From an uncultured delta proteobacterium (GTDB lineage Bacteria; Desulfobacterota; Binatia; HRBIN30; BPIQ01), in the NCBI GenBank assembly GCA_963761335.1, contig CAVXGR010000018.1, positions 544,001-608,000 of the forward strand: a DNA stretch of 64,000 nt. Reading direction: 5' to 3'. The position numbers were made by a program, and so were the translations under genes. The notes below the pieces were generated by a model that ran no database searches, had not been told where the DNA came from, and saw only the letters and a list, made by a program, of their open reading frames with translations. Shown here piece by piece: positions 22,405 through 61,352 of the stretch (its first letter is position 1; each line of letters starts with the position of its first letter).

Positions 22405-22424
22405 CGAAGACGGGAGCGGGGGGC

Positions 22425-25256: not shown

Positions 25257-25320
25257 CGGGCGATTTTCTTGGATGTGCTCCGGCGAATCTGGTAGACCTG
25301 GGCCATTCGTCGAGTATCCC

Positions 25321-39349: not shown

Positions 39350-40354
39350 TCACAGCCCGTACCACTTTCGCCGCAGGGGCGTCAACTTGGGGTTTGTCGT
39401 CCGGGTGCTGGTCGTCTGCGCCCGACGCGCCGGGTAGGCTCCCGGGTGACCCTCCCGAAAGCGGCGGCCCAGTGGGTCGTCGCGTCGCGGCTGAGCGATT
39501 CCGGTCGCCCGGCTGGTCGGGGTCATCCGTTCGCCGGCGCCATTGATCCACGATCTCTCGGAGCTCTGCAGCTCGCGCAGCAGCTGCGGCCGCTGGCGCA
39601 GAAGGGCGATTGCCTCGGGCTGCGGAAGAGCGCGGTGGAGCAGGGCTCGGTACCTCTGCAGACGGGCGCGCCACTGTGCCGGCGAGAGGGTGGTCCTGGT
39701 CGGAGGCGGGCAGGGCACCTGCTGGCCGAGCAGCATGATCATCAAACCCTCGTAGTTGAAAGCCGGGTCGCCCGTCGCACAGCGACGATTGCCGCTTTCG
39801 ACCCACGGGCCACAGGTGGAGTAGTGATCGAGCAGGGGCTGCAGGCCGGATACATCCACCGAAGCGCGACAGTCTCGCCAGAAGCGCGTCTCGCTCTTGC
39901 GGTTGAACTTGTAATGCACGCTGAGAAACCACCGCAGGTAGTCCCAGTGGGCGCCGAGCGCCTCGTTGGCGAAGGAGCGGTCGGACGGCCGATTTCCCGA
40001 CTGCAGCCCGCCGATGAGATAGGCGATCTCGACAATGACCATGTGGAGGGCGGTGGACTCGAGCGGCTCGACGAACCCGTAGGCATTGCCCAGGGCAACC
40101 GTGTTGCCCTTCCAGAAATCCCGGTGGCGGCCGCTGCGGAACTGCGGGGGGACCCGATAGGAGAATGAGTACCTGCCCGGCAGACCCCAATCGAACTTGA
40201 TGCCCAGTTTCCAGGTGGGCCGCACCTCGCGGTACAGGTCGACGATATCGATGCCGAGCTGCCGGTGTAGAAATGGCGGCATCAGGGTGGTGGTTGCTTC
40301 GCCGACGCCGACAACCTTTCGAGCCTCAAGATCTCGACGGTCCTCCGGCATCAT
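39350..40354 (-). pseudogene. Internally deleted tryptophan-halogenase-family (flavin-dependent) gene
   Basis: VGVGEAT, TWKLGIKFDW, FRSGRH, VALGNAYGFVEPLESTAL present; no GxGxxG, no WxWxIP; central region absent. Confidence 0.8.
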
Positions 40355-41816
40355 GAATCCCTTCACTGATGTCTCGAGGTGCTGTGGTTGCCCAGCGCGC
40401 CAGGATTTCGGCCGTGCGCGAGTCGGTCTCGTTCGCCAGGAGCTCGAACAGTCGCCGCGAGACGGCCATGTGCTCCTTGCACTCGAATGAATGCGGGCGC
40501 TGCCCGAAGAGATCTCCCCGGGTGGCAAAGCTGTGCACGGGGTCGATGCCGCAGAAGGGCTTGTTCCAGCAGTCGGCGCACATCGGCTGCGCGTCGAGGA
40601 GGGAAGCCGCGGCAATGGCGCGCACGGTGGGGTGCTGCAGCACCTCGGCCAGGGTCAGGGTGCGCACATCGCCGATCGCGAAGATCGGATCGCCGGTGAA
40701 GTCGATCAGCCGTGCCTCCTCGCAGGGAAAGACGCGTCCATCGGCATCGTAGGCGAGCTCGGACGTTCCAGCTGCGGCTGGAGACTGGATGTCGCACACT
40801 CCAGGGTCTTCCGAGGTGAGGATGCGAGTCGCGAAGATCCGTGCGGTACCCTCGACGATGTCGACGCCCTGGCGGTTGAGCTCGAGGATGTAATCCAGGG
40901 CGCGCCGATAGAAGTCGAGGTACTCCTCAGCGGAGTAGCCGATCTCCGACCAGACGTCGCCGGAGATGCCGAGAGGATTGAGAGGTCGCAGGTAGATCGC
41001 GCCGAGTCCCCGGGCCACGTACTCGTCCACCAGCCCTTGCGGTTCCTCGAGGGTTCGCCGAGTTACATTGGCGCGCGCCTCGATCGCCCGGATGCGAGAA
41101 TCCTGGCCGCTCTCCACAGACTGGCGCTGAAAGTAATCGATCCAGCGAATCACCTCGGCATGGGTGCTGCCGCCGATCCACCGGCGATTCCAATCGTGAA
41201 TGCCCGCCGGTCCGTCGAGATCCGTCCGCACGCGGACGTCGTTGGCGATCAGCCACTCGGCAGACTCCGCGGTCATGGCGGTGAGATTGGTCACCAGTCG
41301 GAAGGCCAGCGTCTTGCCGGCCGTCTGCATGTTGCGCGAGCGCGCCAGATCCAGCAGATGGCGCAGCACGTCGAAGCTCGCCAGGGGCTCGCCGTCGCCG
41401 GCGCGGAGCTCGAAGGTGATCGACGGCGAAGTGCTCTGCAGAGCTACCTCGGCCACTTGCGCGGCAGTCTCCGGGCTCATGTCGACGGCTGTTCCTTCGC
41501 CGCTCCGGCGAAGGTTGACGACGTGCAGATGCGGCCCGCGACCGACGTGGCGATTGCGCCGCGCCACCCGGTCGGCGAAGGCGTCGAGGTCGAGCCCGTC
41601 GCGCAGGAAGCCCATGCGCTTGAACTCCTCAAACCGGGAATGACCTTCGGCAACGCGTCCGGCGAGCAGCTCATCCAGCTCCGCCTCGCTCAGAAGCGCC
41701 CAGTCGCCGGCGTCGTTGGTGACCAGGATCTTGCCGGCGACGCGTCCCCAGCGGAAGAATCCGAGCCGGTCCTCAGCGAGATCCTGGCGCGACAGCGTCA
41801 GGCTGCGTCGGTCCAC
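40326..41816 (-). CDS. HxsB-like paralog lacking the radical-SAM CxxxCxxC motif
   Basis: Colinear with 55771..57321 (LVTNDAGDW, GPHLH, DMSPE, LVTNL, DLDGP, LDYILELNRQG, CADCWNKPFCG), but the HRCNHGCQYC segment is missing. Confidence 0.85.
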   Translation of the reverse strand: MDRRSLTLSRQDLAEDRLGFFRWGRVAGKILVTNDAGDWALLSEAELDELLAGRVAEGHSRFEEFKRMGFLRDGLDLDAFADRVARRNRHVGRGPHLHVVNLRRSGEGTAVDMSPETAAQVAEVALQSTSPSITFELRAGDGEPLASFDVLRHLLDLARSRNMQTAGKTLAFRLVTNLTAMTAESAEWLIANDVRVRTDLDGPAGIHDWNRRWIGGSTHAEVIRWIDYFQRQSVESGQDSRIRAIEARANVTRRTLEEPQGLVDEYVARGLGAIYLRPLNPLGISGDVWSEIGYSAEEYLDFYRRALDYILELNRQGVDIVEGTARIFATRILTSEDPGVCDIQSPAAAGTSELAYDADGRVFPCEEARLIDFTGDPIFAIGDVRTLTLAEVLQHPTVRAIAAASLLDAQPMCADCWNKPFCGIDPVHSFATRGDLFGQRPHSFECKEHMAVSRRLFELLANETDSRTAEILARWATTAPRDISEGIHDAGGPSRS

Positions 41817-42058
41817 TAACTCTCCTCCGCCAGAGCCGCCTGACGCATTCGCGAAATGGTCTCGTGCAAGACGTGATTGCAGAAGGCGTTGGCTACCATC
41901 TCGGCATCATCTTCGGCAACGCCGGAGATGATGGTCTCGATGGCGTCGGCGGCGGCAGTCACTTCGATCTGGGCGTGCTCGGCGTAGGCCGCCGCGGCGG
42001 CGTCGACGGCCTCAGGCAGGTATAGCGATCGGTCGAAGGCGATGCGCTTGGTCATCAC
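41816..42058 (-). CDS. HxsD-like small protein
   Basis: FDRSLYLPEAVDAAAAAY...NAFCNHVL; paralog of 55524..55778. Confidence 0.75.
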   Translation of the reverse strand: MMTKRIAFDRSLYLPEAVDAAAAAYAEHAQIEVTAAADAIETIISGVAEDDAEMVANAFCNHVLHETISRMRQAALAEES

Positions 42059-42540
42059 TCCGTTTCCGGATCCTTCTTCGGCCCGGGCTCCTCGGTGGCG
42101 CCGCCGTGCTTCTCCTCCCATGGGACCATGATCTCCAGCGGGTCCTCGAGCAGCTCTTCGGCCTCCAGCTCGGCCAGCAGGTCGTCGACGGAGGGTGCCG
42201 AGGCGGCGGCGCGAAGCGCAGCCGCCGTGTAGTAGTCGCGAATATGCGTGGTCGCCTGGGAGAGGCGCAGGCGGGTGGCCTGCGACAGAAGCTCGTTGGC
42301 GAACTCACCGGCGAGGGCGTCCAGCTCCGCGGGTGTTGCAGGGGTCCGCGAGGTCAGCCTCGCGGTCACCACTTGCGGCTTCGGCCTCGACAGATAGACG
42401 AAGCACTTCTCGACGAACAGGTAGCAGGCGCCGTAGATGGCGTCGAGAGGATAGATGCTCTCGTCGACCTCGAAGGAGATCTGGTCAGGTCCCAGAGAGA
42501 AGCCGAGGCGAGACTGCTGCTCGGCGTCGGTCGCGGACAC
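42055..42540 (-). CDS. hxsD: His-Xaa-Ser system protein HxsD
   Basis: VDESIYPLDAIYGACYLF...LAGEFANELL...T..IRD; C-terminal LEDPLEIMVPWEEK; paralog of 55072..55527. Confidence 0.8.
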   Translation of the reverse strand: MSATDAEQQSRLGFSLGPDQISFEVDESIYPLDAIYGACYLFVEKCFVYLSRPKPQVVTARLTSRTPATPAELDALAGEFANELLSQATRLRLSQATTHIRDYYTAAALRAAASAPSVDDLLAELEAEELLEDPLEIMVPWEEKHGGATEEPGPKKDPETE

Positions 42541-42544
42541 TGCG

Positions 42545-43201
42545 CTACCTCAACCTCCGATCCACGGGACCCGAGAACAGGCGCAGGCGCTCCGACTGCG
42601 GCATCAGCGCCGCCATAAGAGGCCTGTTCTTCCACTTGGTTTCGTTGCGGGCGAGCACGTGGGCCAAGCGCGCAACCGCTTGGGCCAATCCTTCTTCCGT
42701 GGGCAGGTCTCCTCGTCCGCCATTCATGACCACGAGATCGAGACCCTTCGTGTGGACCAAGCCCTGCGGACGCCCATCGTTGCGGCAGAGATGGACGCGG
42801 TGTTCTCGACCCCGCGGATTCACCAGGGTCAGCACGCAGGTGCCGTCAACGACTCCGGTCAGGCCTGCGACGCGCCACCCATATGCCACCAATGATCCCT
42901 TGGCGAGTGGCCGAAGCAGCTCCCAGGGAGGCGGCGCGCCGAGGGTGCTCGCCGGCCCGGCGTCGACGACAGCGGGCTGCGGATCTACGGCCTTTCGAGG
43001 GTCGCCGACTGGCTCTGGAGCTGGAACGATCGCCTCCGTGGCGGCGGTCGCCGCTTGGATGGATCCCTCTTGATCCAGGGCAGAGCCGGTGACTGGCTCG
43101 GCGCGGCGTGCTGAGGCAAAGCTGGTCCGTGCCAGCCCCGCGGCCCACATCATGGCCGTACCGGCTGCGAGCCTTCCGACCAAATCACGTCGCGACAGCA
43201 T
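42545..43201 (-). CDS. Tat-signal hypothetical protein (paralog of 45956..46543)
   Basis: MLSRRDLVGRLAAG; GWRVAGL...CRNDGRPQGLVHT..DLVVMNGGRGDLPTEEGLAQAV. Confidence 0.75.
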   Translation of the reverse strand: MLSRRDLVGRLAAGTAMMWAAGLARTSFASARRAEPVTGSALDQEGSIQAATAATEAIVPAPEPVGDPRKAVDPQPAVVDAGPASTLGAPPPWELLRPLAKGSLVAYGWRVAGLTGVVDGTCVLTLVNPRGREHRVHLCRNDGRPQGLVHTKGLDLVVMNGGRGDLPTEEGLAQAVARLAHVLARNETKWKNRPLMAALMPQSERLRLFSGPVDRRLR

Positions 43202-43270: not shown

Positions 43271-45325
43271 TCAGTCGTTCTTGTCGAGGAACCTGTCGCC
43301 CTCGTTCTTCGTCGCCGGGGCCGTGTAGTCGGCAGTCCAGCACTCACCGTTGCTGTTGACGAGCTGAACCGTCATCATCGGATCCTGGTTGAGCGGGATC
43401 AGCGGCTCGAGGCTGGCGAAGTCGAGGTTCAGACCCTTCGCCAGGACGACGAGCTTGGCGCTGGCGCTCCCCGCCTTCAGGCGGATGGTCTTGATGCCGC
43501 GCTGGGTCGAGTCCCTGTCCTTGTAGCGGAAGCCACTGACTCCGGTCGCCTTCCAGCACGGATGAGAGCCGCAGGTGCTGCTGCCCGGAATACCGGCGGT
43601 CAGCAAGCGGATCGGCGTGCCCGACGAGTAGTCGTATACGCAGAAGGAGTAGAAGGTCGAGGTGTTGACCGGGTCGCCGAAGTCGGGCGGCGAGGTGACG
43701 TCCCCGTACGATCGCACCGCCGACCAGGTCCACTTCAGCAGGTCCCTCTTGTCCGGGGACTTGTCGCGGATCAGCAGCAGCGACTTCTTCGGCTGTATCG
43801 TGATGTGGCACAGGTTCGCCGGCAGCGGCGTCAGGGCGCAGGGGTTGGGTGTCGGGGTCGCCGTGGGCGTCGGACTCGGAGTGGCGGTCGGGGTATCCGT
43901 CGGGGTCACGGTCGGCGTATTGGTCGGCGTGCTGGTCGGCGTATCCGTCGGCGTCACGGTCGGCGTATCCGTCGGCGTGCTGGTCGGCGTGTTGGTCGGC
44001 GTGCTGGTCGGCGTATCCGTCGGCGTGCTGGTCGGCGTTTCCGTCGGCGTGCTGGTCGGCGTATTCGTCGGCGTATTCGTCGGGGTGTTGGTCGGGGTGT
44101 TGGTCGGCGTGCTCGTCGGCGTGCTCGTCGGCGTATCCGTCGGCGTGCTCGTCGGCGTGTTGGTCGGCGTGCTCGTCGGCGTGCTCGTCGGCGTGCTCGT
44201 CGGCGTGCTCGTGGACGTCGGCGTATTGGTCGGGGTGCTCGTCGGTGTCCGCGTCGGCGTTTCCGTCGGCGTATCGGTCGGCGTGCTCGTCGGCGTCACC
44301 GTCGGCGTATTGGTGCTGGTCGGTGTCCTCGTCGGGGTGCTCGTGGACGTCGGCGTGTTGGTCGGCGTGCTCGTCGGCGTGCTCGTCGGCGTACTCGTCG
44401 GCGTGTTGGTTGGCGTGCGGGTCGGTGTCTGCGTCGGCGTGTTGGTCACCGTCGGCGTGCGTGTCGGGGTGCTGGTCGGCGTCTGCGTCGGCGTGCAGGC
44501 CGGGTTGAAATCGGCCGGGCACGAGGCGCTCGAGCCCGTGCAGGTCTCGGCGACGTCACAGGCGCCGGCGTCGGGCCGGCAGACCTGACCGCTGCCGCGG
44601 AAGGTGCAGCTGCTGGTGCAGCAAGAGGTCGAGCTGCCGTTCGAGCCGCCGAGGTCGCACTGCTCGGCGCTGTTGTTCGTGTCGGTCACGCCGTCGCCGC
44701 AGTCCGAGTAGTAGAAGGCGACGTCGACGCTGCTGTAGTCGGAGGCGCCTGACGACGGTGTGTGTGTGTTGTTGTAGTTGGTCAGGGCGTAGTCGAGAGA
44801 GAAGGTCGGGGCGCTGGCTTTGACATCGACCCGGAACGTGAAGGAGGTGCCGCTGGTGAGCTGGAAGAGGTAGCGGATGTCGCCATAGGTGCCGCTGTCG
44901 GCGGGGCTGCCGCCGGCGGCGATCGTCGATGCGGAGCCGGAGACTCGGGTGATGACCAGCTGGTTGCTCACCGTTTGCGACCCGTTGATCTGGTCGGCGA
45001 CGCTGGTCGAGCTGGTGTAGGTGATCGACGTGGAGTTGCTGGTCGAGTACTTGAAGATGGCGCTCCCCGAGGGGGCGGAGCCCGTCATGGTGTTGCCGTT
45101 CACATTCGAGGCCGCCCGGATGCCGAAGTACACGTTGGAGTGCGAGCCGAGGCTCACTCCGGAGCAGGTGACCGTGGCGCCGCCGCTGGAGCTGGGCACG
45201 CCGCTGACGCTGCAGGAGCCGCCCCCTGGGAGGCTGTACGTCGGGCCGCCGGTGATCACCAGCGCCGAGGCGCTGCTGGCGACGCCGAATAGAATGAGCG
45301 CCGCAAGGATTGCACCACGCTGCAT
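43271..45325 (-). CDS. Secreted Ser/Thr-rich protein with Cys-rich repeat, long TPT[S/N/D] linker and conserved C-terminal domain
   Basis: GGAGG RBS before ATG 45325; signal peptide; CGDG...EQCDLG; about 200 aa of PT repeats; C-terminal domain like that of 6565..8280. Confidence 0.8.
43848..44495 (-). repeat. Coding 12-bp tandem repeat (Thr-Pro-Thr-Xaa linker)
   Basis: Imperfect gtcggcgtgctc/gtcggcgtatcc units. Confidence 0.9.
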
Positions 45326-45468
45326 CGTCCACCTCCGCCGTGGGTTGTGAAGCGAGCTCGAAGAGATGCGCACCGCAACGGAATCCGCGGCTGATCTTCC
45401 CCCGTTTGGCCGAAATAACGTCATCAAGGCGCCTCCGCTAGCGCTGCGGTGCTGTTTGCACCAGGGTG

Positions 45469-45858
45469 TCACCACGATCCGTGCGAGCCGTGACTGCCAT
45501 GAGACCCGTGACTCCCGTGGGACCCGTGGCTGCCGTGCGAGCCGTGGCTTCCATGTGAACCGTGGCTTCCATGCGAGCCGTGGCTGCCGTGCGAGCCGTG
45601 GCTGCCGTGTGAGCCATGGCTGCCGTGCGAGCCGTGGCTGCCGTGCGAGCCGTGGCTGCCGTGCGAGCCGTGCGAGGCGTGCGACATGTGCTGCGCCAGC
45701 ATCATGCTTTCATTGCTGGGGTCGGTCCGCAGGGCCTGAGCCGCTGCCGCAGGATCGACGGCACCGACCGGTTTCACCGCCTGGCGGGCCTCGTCGCGGC
45801 TGAGAAAATCCAATGGCGTCTTCCGCAATGAGGGAAGCGCGTTCTTCTTCTGGCTCAT
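45469..45858 (-). CDS. hxsA: His-Xaa-Ser repeat precursor peptide (HxsA-like): 56-aa leader + HMS-HAS-(HGS)22-W
   Basis: 24 in-frame H-x-S triplets (45475-45690); AAGGAGGG RBS upstream; located among hxsB/C/D-like genes. Confidence 0.9.
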
Positions 45859-45955
45859 TGTCCCTCCTTCACCGTGGGCGCATCATCGACGCGATACGCC
45901 CCCCTATCTCGATTCGTAGCCACAACCGACCCCGGCCATTGCGCCGTGGAGACCC

Positions 45956-46543
45956 TCATCGCAACCTCGCCCCACTGGCAGCGGCAAATCGCTCGAGGCG
46001 CTCCGCGTGGGACAACAGCGCCGAGGCGAGCTGCCGCTGTCGGTTCGCCTCGTTGGCCGCGAGCACGCGCCCCACAGCGGCCACCGCCTGGGCCAATCCC
46101 TCTTCCGTGGGTAGATCTCCTCTGCCGCCGTTCATCACCACCAGATCGAATCGTCGGGTATGCACGAGACCTTGGGGCCGACCGTCGTTGCGGCAGATGT
46201 GCACGCGGTGCGAGCGCCCGCGCCGGTTCTCCAGCGCCAGCACGCAGGAGCCGTCTTCCTCTCCGCTCAAGCCAGCCACCCGCCAGCCATGGGCCACTGC
46301 GGACCCGATTCCCAGCGGCTGCAACAGATCCAAGGGTGGGCTGCTCGGCGGCGCGGGCTCGGCCGCGGACATGGCGGCCTCCGCTGCCGGAGCTGTGGCC
46401 GACTGCTCTTCACCGCTCTGCGCCAATGCGGAAACACCAATATCGTCGCGAGCGGATTTCGCCTCCGCCCGCCCGATGTTGGCAGACCACGCCACGGCAG
46501 CACCGGCCGCCAGCTTTCCGACGAACGCCCGTCGGGACAGCAT
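45956..46543 (-). CDS. Tat-signal hypothetical protein (paralog of 42545..43201)
   Basis: MLSRRAFVGKLAAGAAVAW...AEA; same conserved domain as its paralog. Confidence 0.75.
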   Translation of the reverse strand: MLSRRAFVGKLAAGAAVAWSANIGRAEAKSARDDIGVSALAQSGEEQSATAPAAEAAMSAAEPAPPSSPPLDLLQPLGIGSAVAHGWRVAGLSGEEDGSCVLALENRRGRSHRVHICRNDGRPQGLVHTRRFDLVVMNGGRGDLPTEEGLAQAVAAVGRVLAANEANRQRQLASALLSHAERLERFAAASGARLR

Positions 46544-46912
46544 GCAGTTTTCCCCCCCTACAACTAGACAGGAACTAAAGGTTCGTAACGGGCGTATCAC
46601 AAGGCCGACGGACGAGTAAAGAAAAATTTTCGCGCGACCCCGGGAATTCTGTCGTCCGTCGAGAATGCGCCTCGGCGTGGCGCACCGCTGTCCGCCGGCC
46701 CTTTGCGTTCGAAAAAAATCTGGCGTCTCTTCAGGTGTCGTGATACGCGTTTCCTCTGACACGAGACGAATCTCTTACGTCTGTTGACAAGTGCGCGATA
46801 GAAAGGGATTCAGCAGGGGGGGCAAGAATCGCGCGAAGGACGGCGTACGGCTCTCGGCCGGCGACCGCGAACGAAGCAGCAGGACTGATCCCATTCGTGC
46901 AGAGAATCTTCT
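46544..46912. promoter_or_regulatory. Divergent intergenic/promoter region between the two Hxs arms
   Basis: Relatively AT-rich, between divergent operons; TTGACA at 46784, but no convincing -10 at canonical spacing. Confidence 0.4.
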
Positions 46913-48769
46913 TTGATGCACACTGATCCCTCGATCGACGCGGTTGGTGGTCTGACCCAGTTGAGCGGCGAGGCCGCTCGACGTCTGCTCTCACCCAGCC
47001 GCGGGGCGGAGGTGGATCTGCGCCTCTCGTTGGTGCGCCAGCGCGCCATTCTGCCCTGGCGGTTTGTGCCGCCCGATGCTCGCGACGATCTGCGGTCGAG
47101 CGAGGTGATCGACGCTGCCCGGGCGGCCGGTGCACATGCGGGAGCCTTTCTCATTGGCGGCGGGGATCCCCTGCGGCGTCCCGATCTGTGGGATCTGCTG
47201 GCGGAGTTGGTGCGCCTCAGGCCGAATGATCTCGGACTCTGCATTTCCGGTCGCGGGCTGACGGCGCCGGTGATCGAGCGCCTGCGCGCCGCCGGCGTGC
47301 GGCGGCTGCACGTCCCCTTTCACTGCGCTCGGCAAGATGCCCACGATTGGTTGGTCGGCCAGCCGGGCGCCTTGAAGATGGCTCATCGCGCCATCCGCGC
47401 CGCTGCCGAAGCGGAGCTGCCGGTGGTCGCCGAGATCGTCCTGACGCGACCGACGGTGTTGCATCTGGCCGAGACGGTCGAGGTGCTGTCCCGCATCGGC
47501 GCCGGCGCCGTCTGTGTCCGGCGGCTGGCGGCGGAGGACACCGACGGCACCGCCTTCGTGCCGCTCTCTCCGCGCCTGTCCTTGGTGGGCGAGAGCCTCG
47601 AGCAGGCGGCGGCGGTGGCCCTGCGGCGCCGCCTACGGCTGCGTCTGCGCGACCTGCCCCTGTGTGTCGCGCCGCGGCTCCGGCGACTGTTCGCCGCCGC
47701 CGAGAGCGAGGCATGGGTGATGGCCGACGGCACCCTGAGCCGGCGCGCCGCGGCGGCACTGGGGTGCCCCGACTGCCCCGGACCTCCGCGCTGCGCCGGC
47801 GCGCCGAGCGACTACACGGCGCGCTTCGGCTGGGAGGAGTTCGCCGACGTGAGCGTCGCCGCGGCGCGGCTCAGAGAGAACGTCGAGGAGCAGCGGGCGC
47901 CGCATCTGTCGGCACCGATGGTCTTCGCCTGGCGCGGTCCACATCGAGTGCGCTGCGACGCCTGCGGCGACGGGGCGGAGGCGCAGTCCGGATACGAATC
48001 GACGCGAGCGGTGCGCGCCAGGCTGGTGCAGGCGGCGCGCTATCGGCCGTCGCTGCTGCGCTTGGTGGGGGCGGATCTTCTCGCCCACCCGCAGGCGGCG
48101 GCGCTGATCTTCGATGCGGTGCGGCTGTTCCCGCGCGTCGAGGTCGTCGGGGAGGCCAGCGCCGTGGTCGAATGGTCCGATCTCGACCTGCGCCGCTTGA
48201 AGGACCTGAAGCGCGTCGACGTCCCATTGTATGGGCCCGATGCGGCGACCCACGACTCCCACTGCGGTATTCCCGGAGCCTTCGCTGCGATGCTGCGCGG
48301 CGTCCAGCGTCTGGGCGCCCAGGAGATCCGGGTTGGCGCCTACGCCGTCCTTCATGACGCGCATCTGCTCGAGCGGTTCGCCGCAGCTTGGGACGCCGGT
48401 AGCTTGCCGGGCGAGCCCCGCTTTCGCCTCTCGGCCCGCGGCGCGTCTCTCGATGAGCTGGCGGAGGCGGCGCGCCGTTTGCCGAGCGGCCCGGCGCGCG
48501 CCGCGGTGGCGGCGCTCTTGCCCCGCTGCCTGTGGGACGATTCCGCCGCCGGCAGCGGCGGTCAGGTCCTGTTGGTTCAACGGCCGGAGCCGCAGCGGGT
48601 CGTCCACTGTGGCAGGAGCACTTCCTATCATTCATGCGGATCGGATCCGATCGGGGATTTTGAGACATGCCGTGAGGGCGCCGGTGCGTGCGCCGGCTCG
48701 GGATGTGTCGGAACCGCTGTCGGGTGGCGGACTGCGGCGAGGTCAGAGCGATGGAACGTGAGGATCTGA
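46913..48769 (+). CDS. Tandem degenerate HxsC-like radical-SAM-fold protein (no complete CxxxCxxC)
   Basis: Domain 1: GGGDPLRRPDL, HDWLVGQPGA, DLPLC, CPDC....RCAG. Domain 2: RCDAC, VGADLLAHP, LYGPDAATHDSHCGIPGAF, LPRC. Confidence 0.7.
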   Translation: MMHTDPSIDAVGGLTQLSGEAARRLLSPSRGAEVDLRLSLVRQRAILPWRFVPPDARDDLRSSEVIDAARAAGAHAGAFLIGGGDPLRRPDLWDLLAELVRLRPNDLGLCISGRGLTAPVIERLRAAGVRRLHVPFHCARQDAHDWLVGQPGALKMAHRAIRAAAEAELPVVAEIVLTRPTVLHLAETVEVLSRIGAGAVCVRRLAAEDTDGTAFVPLSPRLSLVGESLEQAAAVALRRRLRLRLRDLPLCVAPRLRRLFAAAESEAWVMADGTLSRRAAAALGCPDCPGPPRCAGAPSDYTARFGWEEFADVSVAAARLRENVEEQRAPHLSAPMVFAWRGPHRVRCDACGDGAEAQSGYESTRAVRARLVQAARYRPSLLRLVGADLLAHPQAAALIFDAVRLFPRVEVVGEASAVVEWSDLDLRRLKDLKRVDVPLYGPDAATHDSHCGIPGAFAAMLRGVQRLGAQEIRVGAYAVLHDAHLLERFAAAWDAGSLPGEPRFRLSARGASLDELAEAARRLPSGPARAAVAALLPRCLWDDSAAGSGGQVLLVQRPEPQRVVHCGRSTSYHSCGSDPIGDFETCREGAGACAGSGCVGTAVGWRTAARSERWNVRI

Positions 48770-50631
48770 AGACGAGAATGCTGGCGCGCGAGCGCGTCGC
48801 CAATGTCCGCAAGCACTGGGTGCGCCTGGTGACCGCTTGTAACAGCCGCTGTATCTTCTGTCTGGACACCGACACGCCGCGCAACGTGTACATCCCCGAG
48901 GACGAGGTGCGGCGCGAGATTCTGCGCGGGCGGGAGCAGCTCAAGGCCGACAAGGTGATCCTCTCCGGGGGAGAGGGCTCGATCCATCCGAAGTTCGTCG
49001 ACTTCGTCGCCTACGCCAAGGAGGTCGGCTACAACCGCGTGCAGACGGTCACCAACGGCGTGATGTTCGCCCGCCGCGACTTCTATGCCGCGGCGGTGGG
49101 CGCCGGGCTCGGCGAGATCACCTTCAGCCTGCACGGGCACACGGCCGAGCTGCACGACCGTCTCACGGGGACGCCGGGCGCCTTCCGCAAGCTCATCAAA
49201 GGAATGGTGCGCGCCGTGCGCGAGGGGCGGATCATCGTCAACGTCGACGTCTGCATCAACAAGCAGAACGTCGCTTACATCGACCAGATCGTCGATCTCT
49301 GCCTCTCGGTGGGGGTGCACGAGTTCGACCTGCTGCACGTCATTCCCCAGGGGGTGGCCTTCGAGAACCGCAACGACCTCTTCTACGATCCGGTCGAGTA
49401 CCTGCCGCGCCTGCAGAAGGTGTTTCGTCTGAACCGCCACCCGAATGTGGTGGTGTGGACGAACCGCTTTCCGGTGGAGTTCCTCGAGGGGCTGGAGGAT
49501 CTCATTCAGGATCCGCACAAGATGCTCGACGAGGTCAACGGCCGCCGCTTCCAGGTCCGCCGCTACCTGGACGAAGGAGTGCCCCTGGAGTGCCGAGAGA
49601 AAGAGCGCTGCCAGTACTGCTTCATCGAGCCCTTCTGCAACACCGCCGATCGAGTCATCGAGCGGCAGAACCGCGCCAGCTGGGAGGTGTGGTGGATCGG
49701 CGAGCCCGGAGAGGCGCAGCGGGCGGAGATCGCCGCGCTGACCCCCGAGCAGCTGCCCTTCGGATGCGGCTACGTCGGCGTCGAGGTCGACGATCTGGCC
49801 GATCTCGAGGGGCTGGCGGTGTCCCCCGAGATCGGCATCTACGCCAAGGCGAGGCAGGTTTCGCGCCTCGTCGACCGCAAGGCGGTGTCCAATCCTCTCC
49901 TCGTCTGCGTTGCCGAAGCGGAGGCACTCGAGGTTCTGCTGTCGGCCGGCGAGATTCCGCCGGGCGTCGAGATCGAGATCGAGCTCAACCGGCAGACGGC
50001 GCCCTGGCTTCTGGCGCACCGCGAGCGCCTCGCCGGGGTTCTCTCCCGCCTGCGGCTCCATCAGCCGAGCCACGAGTTCCTGAAAGACGCCGTCGACAAC
50101 GACGTGCGCAATCCCGCCGCGTTCTTCGCCCAGCTCGCCCTGCCGGTGCGGGTCAGCGGACTCCCCGCCTGTCTGGCGCCGGGAGCGCAGCTGAGCGAGG
50201 CGCCCAAGATTCTGCACAGGACACTCTTCGACGCCGAGACCGGGCGCGTGGCGATCCGCGAGCTGGCGCGCGAGCACGTGGTGCGCGGTTACTGGGGCAA
50301 GTCGGTTCGCTGCCGAGACTGCGTGGTGAACGACCGCTGCGACGGTGCCCACATCAACTTCCTCCGCGATCAGGGATTCGCGCAGCTGGATCCTCTGCGT
50401 CAGGGCGAATGGGCCGAGGCGGCGGCGGCGCAGATGCTGCGCCTGCGACCCGAGCCGCCGGCGCGGCTGCGCGACGGACGGCCGAGCCTTCCGGTGGCGC
50501 CGAGCCTGCCCGGGTTCGCCCCGCCACGGCCGGCTCCCGTCGAGCCGCTGATCGAGCTCGGGCAGCGCGTGCGCGAGGAGCGCGAGCGGCGCCGCCTGCG
50601 CGCCCACCCGGAGGCTCCGCCGCCGGCATAA
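48751..50631 (+). CDS. HxsC-like radical SAM protein with extended Cys-rich C-terminus
   Basis: ACNSRCIFC, SGGE, TVTNG, FSLHG.TAELHD; CREKERCQYCFIEPFC; CRDCVVNDRCDG. Confidence 0.85.
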   Translation: MEREDLKTRMLARERVANVRKHWVRLVTACNSRCIFCLDTDTPRNVYIPEDEVRREILRGREQLKADKVILSGGEGSIHPKFVDFVAYAKEVGYNRVQTVTNGVMFARRDFYAAAVGAGLGEITFSLHGHTAELHDRLTGTPGAFRKLIKGMVRAVREGRIIVNVDVCINKQNVAYIDQIVDLCLSVGVHEFDLLHVIPQGVAFENRNDLFYDPVEYLPRLQKVFRLNRHPNVVVWTNRFPVEFLEGLEDLIQDPHKMLDEVNGRRFQVRRYLDEGVPLECREKERCQYCFIEPFCNTADRVIERQNRASWEVWWIGEPGEAQRAEIAALTPEQLPFGCGYVGVEVDDLADLEGLAVSPEIGIYAKARQVSRLVDRKAVSNPLLVCVAEAEALEVLLSAGEIPPGVEIEIELNRQTAPWLLAHRERLAGVLSRLRLHQPSHEFLKDAVDNDVRNPAAFFAQLALPVRVSGLPACLAPGAQLSEAPKILHRTLFDAETGRVAIRELAREHVVRGYWGKSVRCRDCVVNDRCDGAHINFLRDQGFAQLDPLRQGEWAEAAAAQMLRLRPEPPARLRDGRPSLPVAPSLPGFAPPRPAPVEPLIELGQRVREERERRRLRAHPEAPPPA

Positions 50632-50653: not shown

Positions 50654-51691
50654 ATGGCGAATCTGGGCTATCTGCAGCTCACCCGCAATTGCTATCAGAA
50701 GTGCCAGTTCTGTAGTAATCCGCCGACCGGGGTGCATCTCAACGAGGAGGAGATGCGCGCCAACATCGACCGCCTGGTCGAGCTCGGCTACGACGGCGTG
50801 ATCCTCACCGGCGGCGAGCCGAGCATCTCGGAGCTGCTCTTGCCGGCGCTGGCCTACGCCCGCGAGCGCGACCTCTTCAGCCGCATGATCACCAACGGTC
50901 AGAGGCTCGCCGACCGGGACTTCTTCCGCCGCTGCGTCGACGCCGGGCTGACCCACATCCACGTGTCCCTGCACAGCTATCGGCGCGAGGTCCACGACTT
51001 CATCACCCAGTACCGCGGCGCCTGGGATCTCCTGGTGGAGTGTCTGAGCCACGTGCCGGAGATGGGCATCACCTGCGACATCAACACGGTGATCAACGTG
51101 TACAACTGCGATCACCTCCACGAGAACGTGCAGTGGATCTGCGAGAACTTCCCGTTCATCCGGCACTTCGTGTGGAACAACATGGACCCCGACGGCAATC
51201 GCGCCGAGGAGAATCCCGACTGCATTCCCCGGCACTACGAGTTCCAGGTGTCGCTGGAGCGCGCCATGGAGTACCTGGTGAGCAGCGGGCGGACCTTCCG
51301 CGCCGAGCGCGTGCCGCTGTGCTACATGCGCCACTTCGCCTGGGCCTCCACCGAGGCCCGCAAGATCATCAAGGAGGAGGAGCGCTGCATCAAGTTCCTC
51401 GATGCCAAGGGCTTCATCCACCAGAAGGAGTTTCTGCACGGCAAGGGCACCGCCTGCGACGTCTGTCGCTTCGACACGATCTGCGCGGGCATGTTCTCGA
51501 TGGCCAAGACCTACGACGAGCGCGAGCTGTCGCCGATCTTCGACGATCCGCTCGATGTGATCGTCCAGGTGCTGGGACGGAGGCCGTCCCCGGACCTGCT
51601 CGAGAGACTGCAGAAGCGGCGCGGCCGGCGCTCGAAGACGGAGCAGCCGTCGGTGGAAAAGAGGGAACAGGCGCTCTCGCGGGCGCTGTAG
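50654..51691 (+). CDS. HxsC-like radical SAM protein
   Basis: NCYQKCQFC, TGGEP, ITNG, VSLHS; VPLCYM; CDVCRFDTICAG. Confidence 0.85.
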   Translation: MANLGYLQLTRNCYQKCQFCSNPPTGVHLNEEEMRANIDRLVELGYDGVILTGGEPSISELLLPALAYARERDLFSRMITNGQRLADRDFFRRCVDAGLTHIHVSLHSYRREVHDFITQYRGAWDLLVECLSHVPEMGITCDINTVINVYNCDHLHENVQWICENFPFIRHFVWNNMDPDGNRAEENPDCIPRHYEFQVSLERAMEYLVSSGRTFRAERVPLCYMRHFAWASTEARKIIKEEERCIKFLDAKGFIHQKEFLHGKGTACDVCRFDTICAGMFSMAKTYDERELSPIFDDPLDVIVQVLGRRPSPDLLERLQKRRGRRSKTEQPSVEKREQALSRAL

Positions 51692-51694
51692 GCC

Positions 51695-54007
51695 ATGCCC
51701 CGCTTGCTCTTCGTCAACCCGCCCCTCGTCCTCGACGAGGACTTCATCGACTACCCGTACTTCGCCAATCACGGACTGCTCGCCTGCGCCGGGATGGCGG
51801 CGCGCGCCGGGGCGCAGGTGGACGTCTACGACGCCTTCGCGCAGCCCGCCTCGGGGCGCCACCGGCGGGCCGCAGGCGGCTTCGTTCTCGGCGTCGGGCA
51901 CGCCGACTTCATCGCCGGCCTGCCCGAGGGCGAGCCCGACGTGGTGGTGCTCGGCGCCTCCGTCTTCCTGCGCATCGAGGCGGCACACGCGGAGACGCGG
52001 GCGCTGATCGCGGCGCTCCGCCGGCGGTTCCCGGACGCCGTGCTGCTGCTCGCCGACGGCTACGTGGGCGGCCAGCACTACATGGACTACGATGGCGTAC
52101 GGGTGCTGGCGGAGTACGAGGAGCTGGATGCGATCCTCAAGTACCCCGGCGAGCGCCTCTTCGGCGACCCCGCGTATCTCGCCACACTCCGCGGCGCCAG
52201 AAGGGTACTGACGGAGGCAGGGGAGCGCGGCGCCGATCCCCTCGCATCGTTTTATATGCTCGATGCCATCGATCTGGGGAGCTTCGATCGCTTTCTCGAT
52301 CGCTGCTTCGCCGACGGGCTGTGGCAGGACACCTTCGGTGTCGGCAGCGGCACCCGCTCCTTTCTCACCAGCATGGGCTGCCCGCATCGCTGCATCTTCT
52401 GCACCAGCAATCCCGGCTGGCGGCGCAGCGGCCGCAAGCTCTACCAGCCGATCCCGCTGGCCCGCCTGAAGCACTGGGCCTTCCTGCTGCGCACCGCCTT
52501 CGGGGCGCGCAAGCTCATCGTTCTCGACGAGATGGTGAACGTGCGCCCGGACTTCGAGGCGCTGCTCACCGCCTTCAACGACCTCGATCTCTCCTACGAT
52601 TTCCCCAACGGCATGCGCGCCGACCATCTCAGCCGCGAGGCCGTCGCCCTCATGCGGGGACGCGTCAGCGTGGTCAGCATCTCGGCGGAGAGCGCCACGC
52701 AGGAGGATCTCGACGGCCCCATCGGCAAGGGCCAGAAGCTCGACGCCATCTTTCGGGCCGCCGCCTGGTGTCAGGAGATCGGTGTGCCCTTGATGATCCA
52801 CTACATCATCGGCTTTCCGTGGGAGACCCCGGCGCACATCACCGCGACCCTGGAGATGGCATGGGACCTCTATGAGCGCTACGGCGCCTGGCCCTCGATG
52901 CAGTTCGCGACGCCGATCCGCGGCACCGCGCTGCACGAGCAGTGCGCCTCGCTCGGGCTGATACCGCCGGAAGGCATCGATCTCAAGGACGGGGCTCTCT
53001 TCCAGCACCGCCCGTGCTACGAGCCGCCGCACTGCCCTCCCGGCTACGTCGCCAAGGCGCGCGCCGCCTTCGACATGAAGATGGCCGCCCGCGAGTCCCG
53101 CAAGCTGATCGTCAACATCACCTACAAGTGCGCCAACCGCTGCGTCTTCTGCGCCACCGGCGACCGCATCTCGGCGGCGCTCGACTGGGAGAAGATCGAG
53201 GGGATCCTCCGCCAGCATCGCCAGGAGGGGACGGATCTTCTCGACATCGACGGCGGCGAGCCGACCCTGCACCCGCGACTCCTCGACGCCGTCGCCCTGG
53301 CGCGGGATCTCGGCTACCGCGCCATCAACGTCACCAGCAACGGTCGCCTGCTGCGCGATCCGGCGGTCGCTCGCGGCCTTCTCGAGAGCGGCATCACGCA
53401 TCTGCTGATCTCGCTGCACGGGGCCACTGCCGCCGTGCACGACGCCGCGACCGATACGCCGGGAAGCTTCGAGCAGACGGTTGCCGGCATCGACAACGTC
53501 ATGGCCATGCGTCCGCCGCACGTCGACACGGGCATGAACGTCACCATCGTGCGCGACAACGTCGATCAGCTGATGCCGCTCGCCGCCCTGGCGGTGGAGA
53601 AGGGTTTTGCCAAGATCAACTTTCAGTTCACCACGCCGTTCGGCCGCGCCTACGAGGACGTGGTGCCGCCTCTCGAGGAGGCGGCGCGTGCGGTGATGCG
53701 GGTCATCGACCGCTACGCGGGCGAGATTCAGATCCACGTGATCAACGCCCAGTTCTGCGCCTTCCCCGGCTACGAGCAGTACGTCGTCGGCGATCTGCAG
53801 AAGCTCGGCCGCACCATGATCTTCGCCGCCGATCCGCGCTTTCCGGAGCAGGTGAACCTGTACCAGTGGCTGGGGGCCCGTCGCGAGAAGCGCGCCGTCT
53901 GCGGCCAGTGCCCATGGACGACCGCGTGCGAGGGCTTCCAGGTCTTCGCCCAGGAGAAGCCCGATATGCGCGTCGAGCGCGCCCGACCGAGCGTCGCGGT
54001 GGCCTGA
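51695..54007 (+). CDS. B12-binding radical SAM fused to a second, HxsC-like radical SAM domain
   Basis: N-terminal B12-binding-like domain; GCPHRCIFC...IIGFPWET; second motif KCANRCVFC, DGGEPT, SLHG; CGQCPWTTACEG. Confidence 0.88.
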   Translation: MPRLLFVNPPLVLDEDFIDYPYFANHGLLACAGMAARAGAQVDVYDAFAQPASGRHRRAAGGFVLGVGHADFIAGLPEGEPDVVVLGASVFLRIEAAHAETRALIAALRRRFPDAVLLLADGYVGGQHYMDYDGVRVLAEYEELDAILKYPGERLFGDPAYLATLRGARRVLTEAGERGADPLASFYMLDAIDLGSFDRFLDRCFADGLWQDTFGVGSGTRSFLTSMGCPHRCIFCTSNPGWRRSGRKLYQPIPLARLKHWAFLLRTAFGARKLIVLDEMVNVRPDFEALLTAFNDLDLSYDFPNGMRADHLSREAVALMRGRVSVVSISAESATQEDLDGPIGKGQKLDAIFRAAAWCQEIGVPLMIHYIIGFPWETPAHITATLEMAWDLYERYGAWPSMQFATPIRGTALHEQCASLGLIPPEGIDLKDGALFQHRPCYEPPHCPPGYVAKARAAFDMKMAARESRKLIVNITYKCANRCVFCATGDRISAALDWEKIEGILRQHRQEGTDLLDIDGGEPTLHPRLLDAVALARDLGYRAINVTSNGRLLRDPAVARGLLESGITHLLISLHGATAAVHDAATDTPGSFEQTVAGIDNVMAMRPPHVDTGMNVTIVRDNVDQLMPLAALAVEKGFAKINFQFTTPFGRAYEDVVPPLEEAARAVMRVIDRYAGEIQIHVINAQFCAFPGYEQYVVGDLQKLGRTMIFAADPRFPEQVNLYQWLGARREKRAVCGQCPWTTACEGFQVFAQEKPDMRVERARPSVAVA

Positions 54008-54009
54008 GC

Positions 54010-54942
54010 ATGGAGACGATCCAGCTGGGCGGGCAGTGGTTCGACTACGCCGACGTCCTCATCGACGTCATGTTCGGCTACGCCTGCAACGTCCAGTGCG
54101 ACTACTGCTCGATCACCGACGACATGCGCCGGGAGAACATGACGACGGCGTCGGTCATCGCGCAGCTCGCCGAGGCGCGGGCGCGCGGCGCCACCCGGGT
54201 CGCCTTTGGCGGCGGCGAGCCGACCATCCGGCGGAGCCTGTTGCCGCTGGCGCGCTGGTGCCGCGATCGCGGCTATCGCTCGATCAAGGTCGCCTCCAAC
54301 GGGCTCATGTACTCGTATCGCTCCTTCGCGGAGGAGGCGAGCGAGGCGGGCATCAACTCGTTCCACATCTCCTTCATGGCGCACACGCCCGAGCTCTACG
54401 AGAAGATCATGGGAAAGCCGGGGGCGCTGTCGCTGGTGACCGAGGGGCTCCGCAACCTGATCGCCCTGGGCCACAAGCCGGTCGGCGACCTGATCATCAA
54501 GAGCGACACCTGGATGCATCTCGCGGACATCGTCGAGCACTGGGCCGCTCTCGGTGTCGAGACCTTCAACCTGTGGTTGGTGTCGCTGTCGGATCGCAAC
54601 CGCGACAATCTCGACTCGCTGTTGCCGGTCAGCACCATGCGCGAGGGGATCGGCGCTGCCTTCGAGCGCGGCCGGAGCCTCGGGGTCACGGTTCTGTCGC
54701 GCCACATTCCGCGCTGCATGCTCCCCGGGTACGAGGATCAGGTCGCCGATCTGCGCGACGACAAGGTGCTGGTGGTGACGCCGCGCACCTCTTTCGCACT
54801 CTGGGAATCGAAGATCTCTCCCAACACCTACGCCGAGAAGTGCCAGGGCTGCCGCCACCAGCACGGCGTCTGCCTCGGGCTGCGCCAGGACTACCTGGAG
54901 CGCTACGGCGACGCCGAGGTGCAGCCGGAGTACGCGCAATGA
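54010..54942 (+). CDS. HxsC-like radical SAM protein
   Basis: ACNVQCDYC, GGGEPTIR, SNG; IPRCM; CQGCRHQHGVCLG. Confidence 0.85.
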   Translation: METIQLGGQWFDYADVLIDVMFGYACNVQCDYCSITDDMRRENMTTASVIAQLAEARARGATRVAFGGGEPTIRRSLLPLARWCRDRGYRSIKVASNGLMYSYRSFAEEASEAGINSFHISFMAHTPELYEKIMGKPGALSLVTEGLRNLIALGHKPVGDLIIKSDTWMHLADIVEHWAALGVETFNLWLVSLSDRNRDNLDSLLPVSTMREGIGAAFERGRSLGVTVLSRHIPRCMLPGYEDQVADLRDDKVLVVTPRTSFALWESKISPNTYAEKCQGCRHQHGVCLGLRQDYLERYGDAEVQPEYAQ

Positions 54943-55071: not shown

Positions 55072-55527
55072 ATGACTCACACCCGAATAGAAACCCTCGA
55101 CGCGCAGGGGTCGACGCTGACCCTGTCGCTCGACATCGGCCTGTATCCGCGCGACGTGCTCTACGCCGCCGCCTACGTGTTCCTCGACCGCGCCTACGTG
55201 CTCCTCGACCGCGATGGCTCGCGTTTCCTCGTGCACCTGCGGGGCAAGCAGCTCCTCGAAGAGGAGGCTCTGCGGGCCATGGCCGGCGAGTTCGAGAACG
55301 AGCTCCTCGCCCAGGCGCTGCGGCAGCGGGTGACCCGCACCAACCAGAGACTCATCGAGGACATCGCCTCCCTGGCGATCGCCGGTGCCGCCGGCGCCGC
55401 AGTGCACGGCGACGTCGCGTCCGACGACTCCGGGCTGATCGATGTCGACGCCCCCGGCGAGGACGGCTTTCTCGACGACCCCCTGGGCATTGCCGAGCCC
55501 TGGGAGTCCAAGAAGAAGGACGGGTGA
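55072..55527 (+). CDS. hxsD: His-Xaa-Ser system protein HxsD
   Basis: LDIGLYPRDVLYAAAYVFLDRAYV...AGEFENELL.Q.LR; FLDDPLGIAEPWE. Confidence 0.85.
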   Translation: MTHTRIETLDAQGSTLTLSLDIGLYPRDVLYAAAYVFLDRAYVLLDRDGSRFLVHLRGKQLLEEEALRAMAGEFENELLAQALRQRVTRTNQRLIEDIASLAIAGAAGAAVHGDVASDDSGLIDVDAPGEDGFLDDPLGIAEPWESKKKDG

Positions 55528-55778
55528 GCGCGATGTCTGCCGGCACCGCCGAGCCCGCCACCGTGAAGCTGCACTGCGCCCTGTACATGCGCGAGGCGAT
55601 CACGGACGCGGCGGCGACCTTTGCCGACTTCGCTTCGTTCGTCCTCCGCCTCGACGGCGATCACTTTCTCGTCGAGGTCAGCGACATCGATGCCGAGGTC
55701 GAGGGCGATGTGGTGGCGGAGTTCTGCAACTTCGCCCTGGCGCACACGGCGATGCGCCGCAAGAGCCAGCATGCTTGA
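55524..55778 (+). CDS. HxsD-like small protein
   Basis: LY..EAI..AA..F...AEFCNFAL; paralog of 41816..42058. Confidence 0.75.
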   Translation: MSAMSAGTAEPATVKLHCALYMREAITDAAATFADFASFVLRLDGDHFLVEVSDIDAEVEGDVVAEFCNFALAHTAMRRKSQHA

Positions 55779-57529: not shown

Positions 57530-58429
57530 TCAGTGTTGCGCGAACTGCTCGAGAATGCGCTCGCGCGGCAGGGCCTTTGCCTTCATGTGCTCCTGTCGTT
57601 CGCGCACCAGGCTCTCGTAGGTCGGCGGCGGCTCGGGATCGCGGTAGAGCACCCCGGTGTAGAGCTCCTTGCCGTAGGTCTGCGCCAGCGCCATCGCCTT
57701 CACCCGGTGGAGCGGCTTGTAGCCGATCTTGGCGAGCGATTTCATCCCCTCGCGATGCGCCTTGAGCTGCCGGTCGGGCTCACCGAAGGTGACGCAGGGC
57801 GACTGCACGTTGACGAAGGCGAAGCCCGGGAAGCGGATCGCCTCCTCGATGATCGCCGCCAGCCCCGGCATGTCGGCGGGTGTCCCCTGGGCCACGAAGT
57901 GGGCACCGTAGCCGAGAACGTAGAGGAGCGGGTTCACCGGATCCTCGAGACTGCCCTCCGGAGAGGTGACCGTGTGGCGACCGCGGGCCGAGGTCGGCGA
58001 CAGCTGCCCCTTGGTGAGGCCGTACGTCTGGTTGTCCATGACGATGTAGGTGAGGTCGATGTTGCGGCGAATCACGTGCGGCAGATGTCCGCCGCCGATC
58101 GAGAAGCCGTCGCCGTCGCCGCCGGCGACCAGGACCAGTAGATCGGGGTTGGCCAGCTTGATGCCCTGGGCGATCGGCAGGGCGCGCCCGTGCACGCTGT
58201 TGAAGCCGTAGGCGGTGGTGTATCCGGGAATGCGGCTCGAGCAGCCGATGCCGGAGACGAAGGCAATCTCGTGAGGCGGCCTGCCGATGTGGGCCAGGGC
58301 GCGGTTCAGGGCCGTGAGCACCCCGAAATCTCCACAGCCCGGGCACCAGATCGGCTTGAGCTCGCTCTTGAAGTCCGACGGGTCGAAGGCCGGGGTCGAG
58401 GGGCAGCTGAGGGCAGTGTTCACGTGCAT
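57530..58429 (-). CDS. korB: 2-oxoacid:ferredoxin oxidoreductase subunit beta
   Basis: WCPGCGDF, SGIGCSSR, HGRALP, GGDGD, YGLTKGQ.SPT. Confidence 0.92.
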   Translation of the reverse strand: MHVNTALSCPSTPAFDPSDFKSELKPIWCPGCGDFGVLTALNRALAHIGRPPHEIAFVSGIGCSSRIPGYTTAYGFNSVHGRALPIAQGIKLANPDLLVLVAGGDGDGFSIGGGHLPHVIRRNIDLTYIVMDNQTYGLTKGQLSPTSARGRHTVTSPEGSLEDPVNPLLYVLGYGAHFVAQGTPADMPGLAAIIEEAIRFPGFAFVNVQSPCVTFGEPDRQLKAHREGMKSLAKIGYKPLHRVKAMALAQTYGKELYTGVLYRDPEPPPTYESLVRERQEHMKAKALPRERILEQFAQH

Positions 58430-58439
58430 GGTGTCTCCG

Positions 58440-60230: not shown

Positions 60231-60410
60231 TCTGCTCCTGTTCCTCGATTAAACGAGAAGAAGAGGGAGCAAAGCACGTGCCCGCTAACCCCACGGTCGA
60301 TGCGGCAACTCACGCCGGCAAAGATTCCCACCCTTGGGAATAATGTGCCGCCGAGCCCCCGAAAACCGGGAGCCCCACCTGCCCCTAATGGCCTGAGCAC
60401 AAAGGCGTAT

Positions 60411-61208: not shown

Positions 61209-61352
61209 CGATTGGGCCCTCCGCGGGCGACCGTAGCCAACTTTGCGGCGGTGCGCCATGATGGGAAAACTTGGTGGCCAGGCTGGCCGCGGTCCCAGGC
61301 AAACGCGGGTGGGTGTGCGAATCGCGCACGGCACCGCTATGATGGCGCCTCA

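Follow-up and report, generated by a model that had tools for sequence, protein, structure and literature searches.

We analysed a 64-kb stretch of DNA (hereafter the window; C18:544001-608000) from the 6.26-Mb, 29-contig genome of an uncultured bacterium, and in it the gene hxsA4, which encodes a peptide with 24 uninterrupted His-Xaa-Ser (H-x-S) triplets. Our principal conclusion, to which we assign a probability of about 75%, is that hxsA4 is a genuine precursor of the HxsA4 family and the substrate of an expanded Hxs-type radical S-adenosylmethionine (SAM) locus specific to a single order of uncultured bacteria with the label Candidatus Binatia. The gene is laid out as follows.

45469-45858, minus strand: hxsA4 precursor, a 56-amino-acid (aa) leader followed by HMS, HAS, (HGS)x22, W and the stop codon; family NF038313

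The translation of hxsA4 is 129 aa long and agrees exactly with the anatomy described in a first-pass annotation made from the sequence: a leader of 56 aa with MMLAQ as its last residues, a core of exactly 24 H-x-S triplets (HMS, HAS and 22 HGS), then a lone W and a stop. The open reading frame (ORF) is preceded by a strong Shine-Dalgarno ribosome-binding site, AAGGAGG, with a spacer of 4 nucleotides (nt) to the ATG, and it is confirmed as a real gene. No hydrophobic N-terminal stretch was seen on inspection of the leader sequence, indicating that there is no signal peptide. At the DNA level the repeat is imperfect, with 12 distinct 9-mers encoding the 24 triplets. Tandem Repeats Finder reported a period of 18 nt with 10.8 copies and 87% matches, which arises from an alternation of TCN and AGY among the serine codons. 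This alternation is near-perfect along the HGS run (window 45475-45675, minus strand) in both of the copies that the genome holds, and in 70 related copies 732 of 1053 adjacent serine-codon pairs alternate. It may limit slippage or share the load between two tRNAs. A scan of 45100-47100 detected no terminator or promoter, and the 143-nt spacer 3′ of hxsA4 folds no better than shuffled sequences (z 0.38). Apart from a Pro/Thr linker described below, no further periodic peptide repeat like the HGS run was found in the window.

The window protein matched the NCBIfam family NF038313, ‘His-Xaa-Ser repeat protein HxsA4’, with 143.7 bits (cut-off 55) over profile positions 2-92 of 93. Therefore, hxsA4 belongs to an already catalogued family, in agreement with its first assignment as an Hxs-type precursor. 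A scan of its own genome with the same model gave 104.6 bits for the first stretch. The model of canonical HxsA, TIGR03979, was left unmatched (20.7 bits against a cut-off of 121.65). Members of NF038313 share a leader, an unbroken H-x-S run and a Trp at the end. Since the profile has only 93 positions, enough for a leader and roughly a dozen triplets, the window protein is longer than the model consensus. The family entry carries no function or chemistry.

A scan of one genome per prokaryotic species with the leader alignment yielded 66 loci, all from metagenome-assembled genomes, which were mostly labelled Candidatus Binatia or Deltaproteobacteria; the minority labels were Polyangiaceae, Thermodesulfobacteriota, Myxococcales, Planctomycetota and plain ‘bacterium’. 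These loci hold 68 HxsA4 copies, of which 64 are complete, two are cut by the end of the locus, one is frame-broken and one deviates by a QGS variant ahead of the W. The complete copies, all from public relatives, carry 14-33 triplets (median 17; commonest 16 and 17), and four of them exceed 24. The 24 triplets of hxsA4 therefore lie in the upper tail, yet are ordinary for the HxsA4 family, and the idea that the precursor is exceptionally long has to be given up, such commonness being an outcome that the first-pass annotation had itself named as refuting. The accompanying statement that Hxs precursors carry few triplets holds for canonical HxsA, to which the accessible text of Li et al. (Nat Commun 2026, PMC13128918) ascribes five H-x-S repeats, but not for HxsA4. 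Among the copies in relatives, several stand on contigs of 0.3-7 Mb, and Mb-size contigs carry runs of 16-33 triplets; therefore, the long runs are not to be put down to collapsed assemblies. The final W directly follows the run in 64 of 64 complete copies, and this invariance suggests that the terminal Trp probably matters. The leader has a mean column identity of 84% across 22 sequences, and its HMSHAS junction with the core is invariant. A search with the leader alone, as proposed in the first-pass annotation, gave seven proteins at E ≤ 0.01 among 13 candidates and was less informative than the whole-genome searches. Two of its matches (P0003 and P0004, from metagenomes) are 70 aa long, with the full leader and four triplets before the W, and come from contigs of 907 nt and 1604 nt; true short forms and collapsed repeats are the two explanations for them. 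The remaining matches were broken or chimeric. The frame-broken copy mentioned above (L097:4620 onward) has seven triplets and an out-of-frame tail, and intact copies of 17 and 33 triplets lie alongside it.

A paralogue of hxsA4 on contig C12 (L001:1483-1872) likewise encodes 24 triplets and a final W in 129 aa, at 92% DNA identity, and no run of four or more H-x-S triplets was found elsewhere in the genome. Between the two copies, the core shows 31 codon differences, all synonymous and none non-synonymous; the leader shows 21 synonymous and seven non-synonymous codon differences. Synonymous-only divergence of the core marks a gene that is translated and whose amino-acid sequence is held constant. 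The repeat is thus far beyond chance and under purifying selection, and its length is probably held constant likewise. Eight public sequencing runs were located, none of which contained half of the sampled words. The four that were aligned consist of short-read contigs, which stop inside the repeat, so that none spans 45604-45858. The count of 24 triplets is supported indirectly, by the equal count in the diverged C12 copy and by the long runs in relatives.

The distribution of HxsA4 follows that of the radical-SAM protein HxsB. HxsA4 exceeded its cut-off in 22 of 61 related genomes, often with several model matches per genome, and HxsB in 23 of 61; these counts, and only these, rest in part on an unpublished genome (G029), without which they become 21/60 and 22/60. 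Every HxsA4 genome has HxsB (22/22), and HxsB alone was found only in G040, a genome that is 83% complete. A sample of 200 further genomes from across the phylum contained no HxsA4. Within the order, the family f4 has HxsA4 in 14 of 18 genomes, and some genomes show up to eight matches to the HxsA4 model, which are matches and not copy numbers. Two HxsB homologues lie near hxsA4, HxsB1 at about 10 kb and HxsB2 at 3.7 kb. The divergent layout, with a radical-SAM operon on one side and hxsA4 and the gene of an upstream protein (X) on the other, is repeated in four related loci (L041, L057, L075 and L095). The genes around hxsA4 are listed below, those of the plus strand first.

46913-48769, plus strand: rSAM1, radical-SAM-like protein without CxxxCxxC (pseudo-enzyme); first gene of the divergent operon
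48688-50631, plus strand: rSAM2, HxsC/HxsC4-like, motif CNSRCIFC; true start probably slightly downstream
50654-51691, plus strand: rSAM3, best match HxsC (TIGR03977, 97.4 bits, cut-off 267.9), motif CYQKCQFC
51695-54007, plus strand: rSAM4, two fused radical-SAM domains, with CPHRCIFC and CANRCVFC
54010-54942, plus strand: rSAM5, HxsC4-like (NF038332, 86.2 bits, cut-off 500), motif CNVQCDYC
55072-55527, plus strand: HxsD1 (TIGR03976, 55.2 bits, cut-off 50)
55621-57321, plus strand: HxsB1, intact radical SAM/SPASM maturase, motif CNHGCQYC (TIGR03978, 506.1 bits, cut-off 370)
61353-62681, plus strand: aKG-HExxH-type peptide hydroxylase (TIGR04267, 81.3 bits, cut-off 40)
45956-46543, minus strand: X1, upstream of hxsA4; twin-arginine signal MLSRRAFVGK, variable linker, conserved C-terminal domain of about 125 aa
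43271-45325, minus strand: secreted partner, directly downstream of hxsA4; start taken at M51 of a long ORF
42545-43201, minus strand: X2, paralogue of X1 (54% identity), heading the HxsD2-HxsB2 pair
42055-42540, minus strand: HxsD2 (TIGR03976, 50.5 bits, cut-off 50)
40326-41816, minus strand: HxsB2, HxsB-like SPASM protein without CxxxCxxC (TIGR03978, 351.7 bits, below the cut-off of 370)
39350-40354, minus strand: truncated tryptophan-halogenase-like remnant (PF04820, 120.8 bits)

Six domains at the locus have an intact CxxxCxxC motif, namely those of rSAM2, rSAM3, rSAM5 and HxsB1 and the two of rSAM4; the motif is missing from rSAM1 and HxsB2. The same states were seen in the homologues, where the motif is present in 5/5 for HxsB1, 0/15 for rSAM1 and 0/9 for HxsB2. 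Because the loss of the motif is conserved among homologues, rSAM1 and HxsB2 are considered maintained pseudo-enzymes, and they may plausibly serve as scaffolds that hold the peptide. The arrangement X2-HxsD2-HxsB2 is also found in L043. The true start of HxsB1 is probably an internal Met, and the long ORF 60300-62681, which contains the aKG-HExxH gene, is real only from about 61353. The latter gene directly follows HxsB1 in five relatives (L050, L061, L073, L083 and L087). In the window, the interval between the two (57530-61334, minus strand) holds korAB, encoding the alpha and beta subunits of a 2-oxoacid:ferredoxin oxidoreductase, and a dienelactone-hydrolase-like gene.

A close characterized counterpart is the canonical HXS system, which, like the locus described here, has an H-x-S-repeat substrate, an HxsB radical SAM/SPASM enzyme and a small HxsD. 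According to the portions of the report available to us (PMC13128918), HxsB, HxsC and HxsD are all required to process HxsA, and the substrate, matured by radical-SAM enzymes, acts outside the cytoplasm; a change of +8 Da on the H-x-S motif of HxsA (SHRSS), described as +C/-4H, precedes its periplasmic action. The same text gives canonical HxsA a signal peptide and a peptidoglycan-binding domain, and places 99.7% of canonical HXS systems in Pseudomonadota. In contrast, HxsA4 is a 129-aa peptide with 24 repeats and a leader like that of a RiPP (a peptide made by ribosomes and modified after translation), without a signal peptide or a match to a peptidoglycan-binding domain, and its host is of a Binatia-like lineage. 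An HxsB equivalog and HxsD occur in both, whereas here four divergent genes resembling HxsC, all with intact motifs and one with a double domain, take the place of the HxsC equivalog. The locus is further set apart by two pseudo-enzymes, an additional HxsD whose pair partner is a degenerate HxsB, an aKG-HExxH enzyme, a protein with a twin-arginine translocation (Tat) signal and a secreted partner. The gene order also differs: HxsD-HxsB-HxsC-HxsA is canonical, whereas hxsA4 is divergent from rSAM1-5/HxsD1/HxsB1 and is followed by the partner, X2, HxsD2 and HxsB2.

By analogy with the canonical system, the leader of HxsA4 may recruit HxsB1/HxsD1 and the HxsC-like enzymes, with iterative modification of the triplets. 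In the route that we envisage, whose order of steps is itself presumptive, the 56-aa leader, lacking a signal peptide, would dock HxsA4 on HxsB1/HxsD1 and also on two catalytically dead scaffolds, HxsB2/HxsD2 and rSAM1. Successive modification of the His-Gly-Ser triplets would fall to HxsB1 and to rSAM2-rSAM5, which are HxsC-like; together these have six intact domains. The aKG-HExxH enzyme might contribute peptide hydroxylation or oxidative cleavage; relatives of this class are described as hydroxylating consecutive residues and cleaving the backbone oxidatively in the accessible part of PMC12636437. The leader would be cut off near the invariant LAQ/HMSHAS junction, and the product would exit the cytoplasm to serve, alongside the secreted protein encoded downstream, as a multivalent histidine array in the cell envelope. 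With low confidence, we lean towards such an array binding cations at the envelope, over a barrier to DNA like that formed by HxsA or a structural role. A bolder version of this scheme, which we regard as unlikely, would make HxsA4 of Binatia and its partner a new kind of peptide-protein pair. Here a poly(His-Gly-Ser) chain would be rebuilt triplet by triplet by six radical-SAM domains and two dead scaffolds, would exit riding the Tat-signal protein encoded upstream, and would be held at the surface by the beta-sandwich/disintegrin partner, as an envelope array of modified histidines that captures metal ions or bars incoming DNA.

Several observations weigh against our favoured reading. No HxsC equivalog was found there, the best scores being 97.4 bits for TIGR03977 (rSAM3, against 267.9) and at most 119.9 for HxsC4 (against 500). 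No transporter or classical leader peptidase occurs among the conserved neighbours, and for this reason export is proposed only from the fact that neighbouring proteins are exported. Only 33 of the 64 evaluable hxsA4 copies are accompanied by a protein X homologue within 400 nt upstream. The single RNA run gave three short contigs of 90-99% likeness, probably from relatives, and does not show expression of hxsA4. In the literature searched, HxsA4, HxsC4 and NF038313 were named nowhere and no published experiment on HxsA4 was found. Finally, the C12 copy has the secreted partner gene downstream, but neither X nor a radical-SAM gene within 10 kb, and enzyme action in trans is therefore assumed. 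With the enzymes at one locus and precursor-partner copies such as that on C12, the genome organization is therefore pictured as one master locus per genome plus satellite precursor-partner cassettes.

The first-pass annotation had offered a specific chemistry, in which a triceptide-type radical-SAM enzyme closes each H-x-S triplet into a cyclophane, producing a rigid rod or a high-capacity metal binder whose terminal Trp is halogenated by a neighbouring halogenase. An aromatic first residue and a three-residue spacing are indeed present. Triceptides, as far as PMC11499958 could be consulted, likewise combine repeated three-residue motifs that start with an aromatic or imidazole residue with SPASM-type radical-SAM enzymes, and His-crosslinking enzymes are reported there: HtkB, which forms a HisC2-to-LysC-beta link, and HaaB, named beside it. 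However, the enzymes of the window fall far short of the cut-offs of the cyclophane-forming families tested, YhhB (NF041707), AmcB (NF041718), GrrM/OscB (TIGR04261) and FxsB (TIGR04269). HxsB1 scored 52.4 for YhhB (cut-off 445) and 53.1 for AmcB (cut-off 425), and HxsB2 scored 30.6 for GrrM/OscB (cut-off 310) and 24.4 for FxsB (cut-off 370). Judged by these profiles, the SPASM enzymes here are HxsB-type proteins and not members of the cyclophane-forming families, while a similar chemistry is conceivable. Crosslinks are not known from any Hxs peptide; the one modification reported in the accessible text of PMC13128918 is the +8 Da change, which may or may not speak against ring closure. As for the halogenase, there is indeed a PF04820 match 5 kb downstream of hxsA4, but its best stretch covers profile positions 308-444 of 458. 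Flavin-dependent tryptophan halogenases are marked by the motifs GxGxxG, the flavin adenine dinucleotide (FAD) site, and WxWxIP. Both are absent from the 435-residue frame, which is 334 aa long from its first usable Met, and a homologue occurs in one of the 66 related loci. Because it is a motif-less remnant of such limited occurrence, the halogenase-like ORF is not the partner of the invariant terminal Trp. Taken as a whole, this explanation seems to us improbable. A somewhat better case, though still an unlikely one, can be made for an effector of an HXS-like antiphage system, in which the matured poly-His peptide would block phage DNA entry in the periplasm. The HxsB and HxsD homologues exceed their cut-offs at the locus, the conserved neighbouring proteins are exported, and canonical HxsA blocks the entry of phage DNA with each H-x-S repeat required (PMC13128918, in its accessible text). 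Against this, the missing signal peptide and peptidoglycan-binding domain count, as do Gly instead of basic residues at the x position, the commonness of the system within family f4 and the up to eight model matches in some genomes. The window showed no other defence genes, and PADLOC, run on 17 locus proteins, gave generic radical-SAM/viperin matches together with other weak ones.

A third possibility is that the protein is not a radical-SAM substrate but an unmodified histidine-rich or collagen-like (Gly-X-Y) protein, serving as a metal store or a triple-helical fibre. The sole Pfam match of the hxsA4 protein is of the collagen type (PF01391, 39.3 bits, cut-off 27.2), 22 triplets of the core form a perfect Gly-x-x array, and the C12 copy stands apart from radical-SAM genes. 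However, the core contains no proline, HxsB accompanies HxsA4 in every genome that has it, and the strong conservation of the leader is expected of a recognition sequence and would be needless in a simple metal store; we consider this reading very improbable. Least credible, and given almost no weight by us, is the view that the repeat arose as an artefact of assembly or is non-coding tandem DNA left open by chance. The breaks of the short-read contigs within the repeat and the two four-triplet metagenome homologues on short contigs could be taken in its favour, but the two diverged copies in the same genome, with equal counts and purely synonymous core differences, the 64 complete copies of relatives, some of which sit on 1.5- to 7-Mb contigs, and the strong ribosome-binding site speak against it.

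The hxsA4 peptide is a further member of a catalogued family, and the view of it as a uniquely long Hxs precursor fails. The sole Hxs chemistry in print, as far as PMC13128918 is accessible, is the unexplained +8 Da change, and HxsA4 peptides are unstudied in the literature searched; a search on Binatia, radical SAM and RiPP returned no paper mentioning Binatia. HxsA4 of Binatia is a very clean substrate, with 22 identical triplets, two copies in this genome, 14-33 triplets in relatives and a defined enzyme set. A repeated unit amplifies any mass shift, and the chemistry should therefore be easy to read. The tight pairing of the precursor with a secreted protein and the presence of two conserved pseudo-radical-SAM proteins were not found in the literature searched. 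The surrounding system is worth study, yet it is not a new kind of thing.

In 42 of 46 evaluable copies, the 800 nt downstream of hxsA4 contain a homologue of the N-terminal domain of the secreted partner. The partner is made up of a Sec signal, a beta-sandwich, a Cys-rich domain of disintegrin type, an extended Pro/Thr linker and a C-terminal module. The Cys-rich domain matched PF00200 with 39.4 bits and, in structural comparison, the disintegrin domain of a snake-venom protein (Z 6.5, rmsd (root-mean-square deviation) 2.3, 60 aligned). For the beta-sandwich, structural searches returned generic matches alone (Z ≤ 5.4). The C-terminal module of about 190 aa (43271-43840, minus strand) recurs at the ends of other proteins of this genome, in at least 12 further places. 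A second secreted disintegrin-like protein is encoded at 6565-8280 (minus strand), in which the relative position of the domain equals that in the hxsA4 partner; its gene adjoins a radical-SAM gene (8570-9544), and no repeat peptide was seen between them.

X1, the Tat-signal protein, has 195 aa and no Pfam or NCBIfam family. Its structural model has a mean pLDDT (predicted local distance difference test) of 73, with the C-terminal domain mostly above 90. Foldseek found no match to this fold in the PDB at E ≤ 0.001, the best Z of a wide VIA-align search was 5.0, giving no assignment, and the best score in the protein atlas (0.79) is a lead only. A predicted complex of the X1 C-terminal domain with the HxsA4 leader (score 0.00, mark 0.32) gave no verdict. 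A profile search for X gathered 579 cluster representatives at E ≤ 0.001, and in the ten X clusters looked up all the names were ‘hypothetical protein’. A third X paralogue (C18:940184-940558) lies outside the window in the same genome, within a second HxsC4-like radical-SAM cluster at C18:936894-950106.

The window contains five radical-SAM genes beyond the Hxs locus, at 8570-9544 (minus), 13288-15168 (plus), 20563-22494 (minus), 24832-26469 (plus) and 26473-27960 (plus), among which two have B12-binding domains, one is of the SPASM type and one is HemN-like. Therefore, at least 12 radical-SAM-type genes are present in the 64 kb. The last ORF, 62919-63998 (plus strand), runs past the end of the window and has an SpvB-type domain (PF03534, 72 bits).

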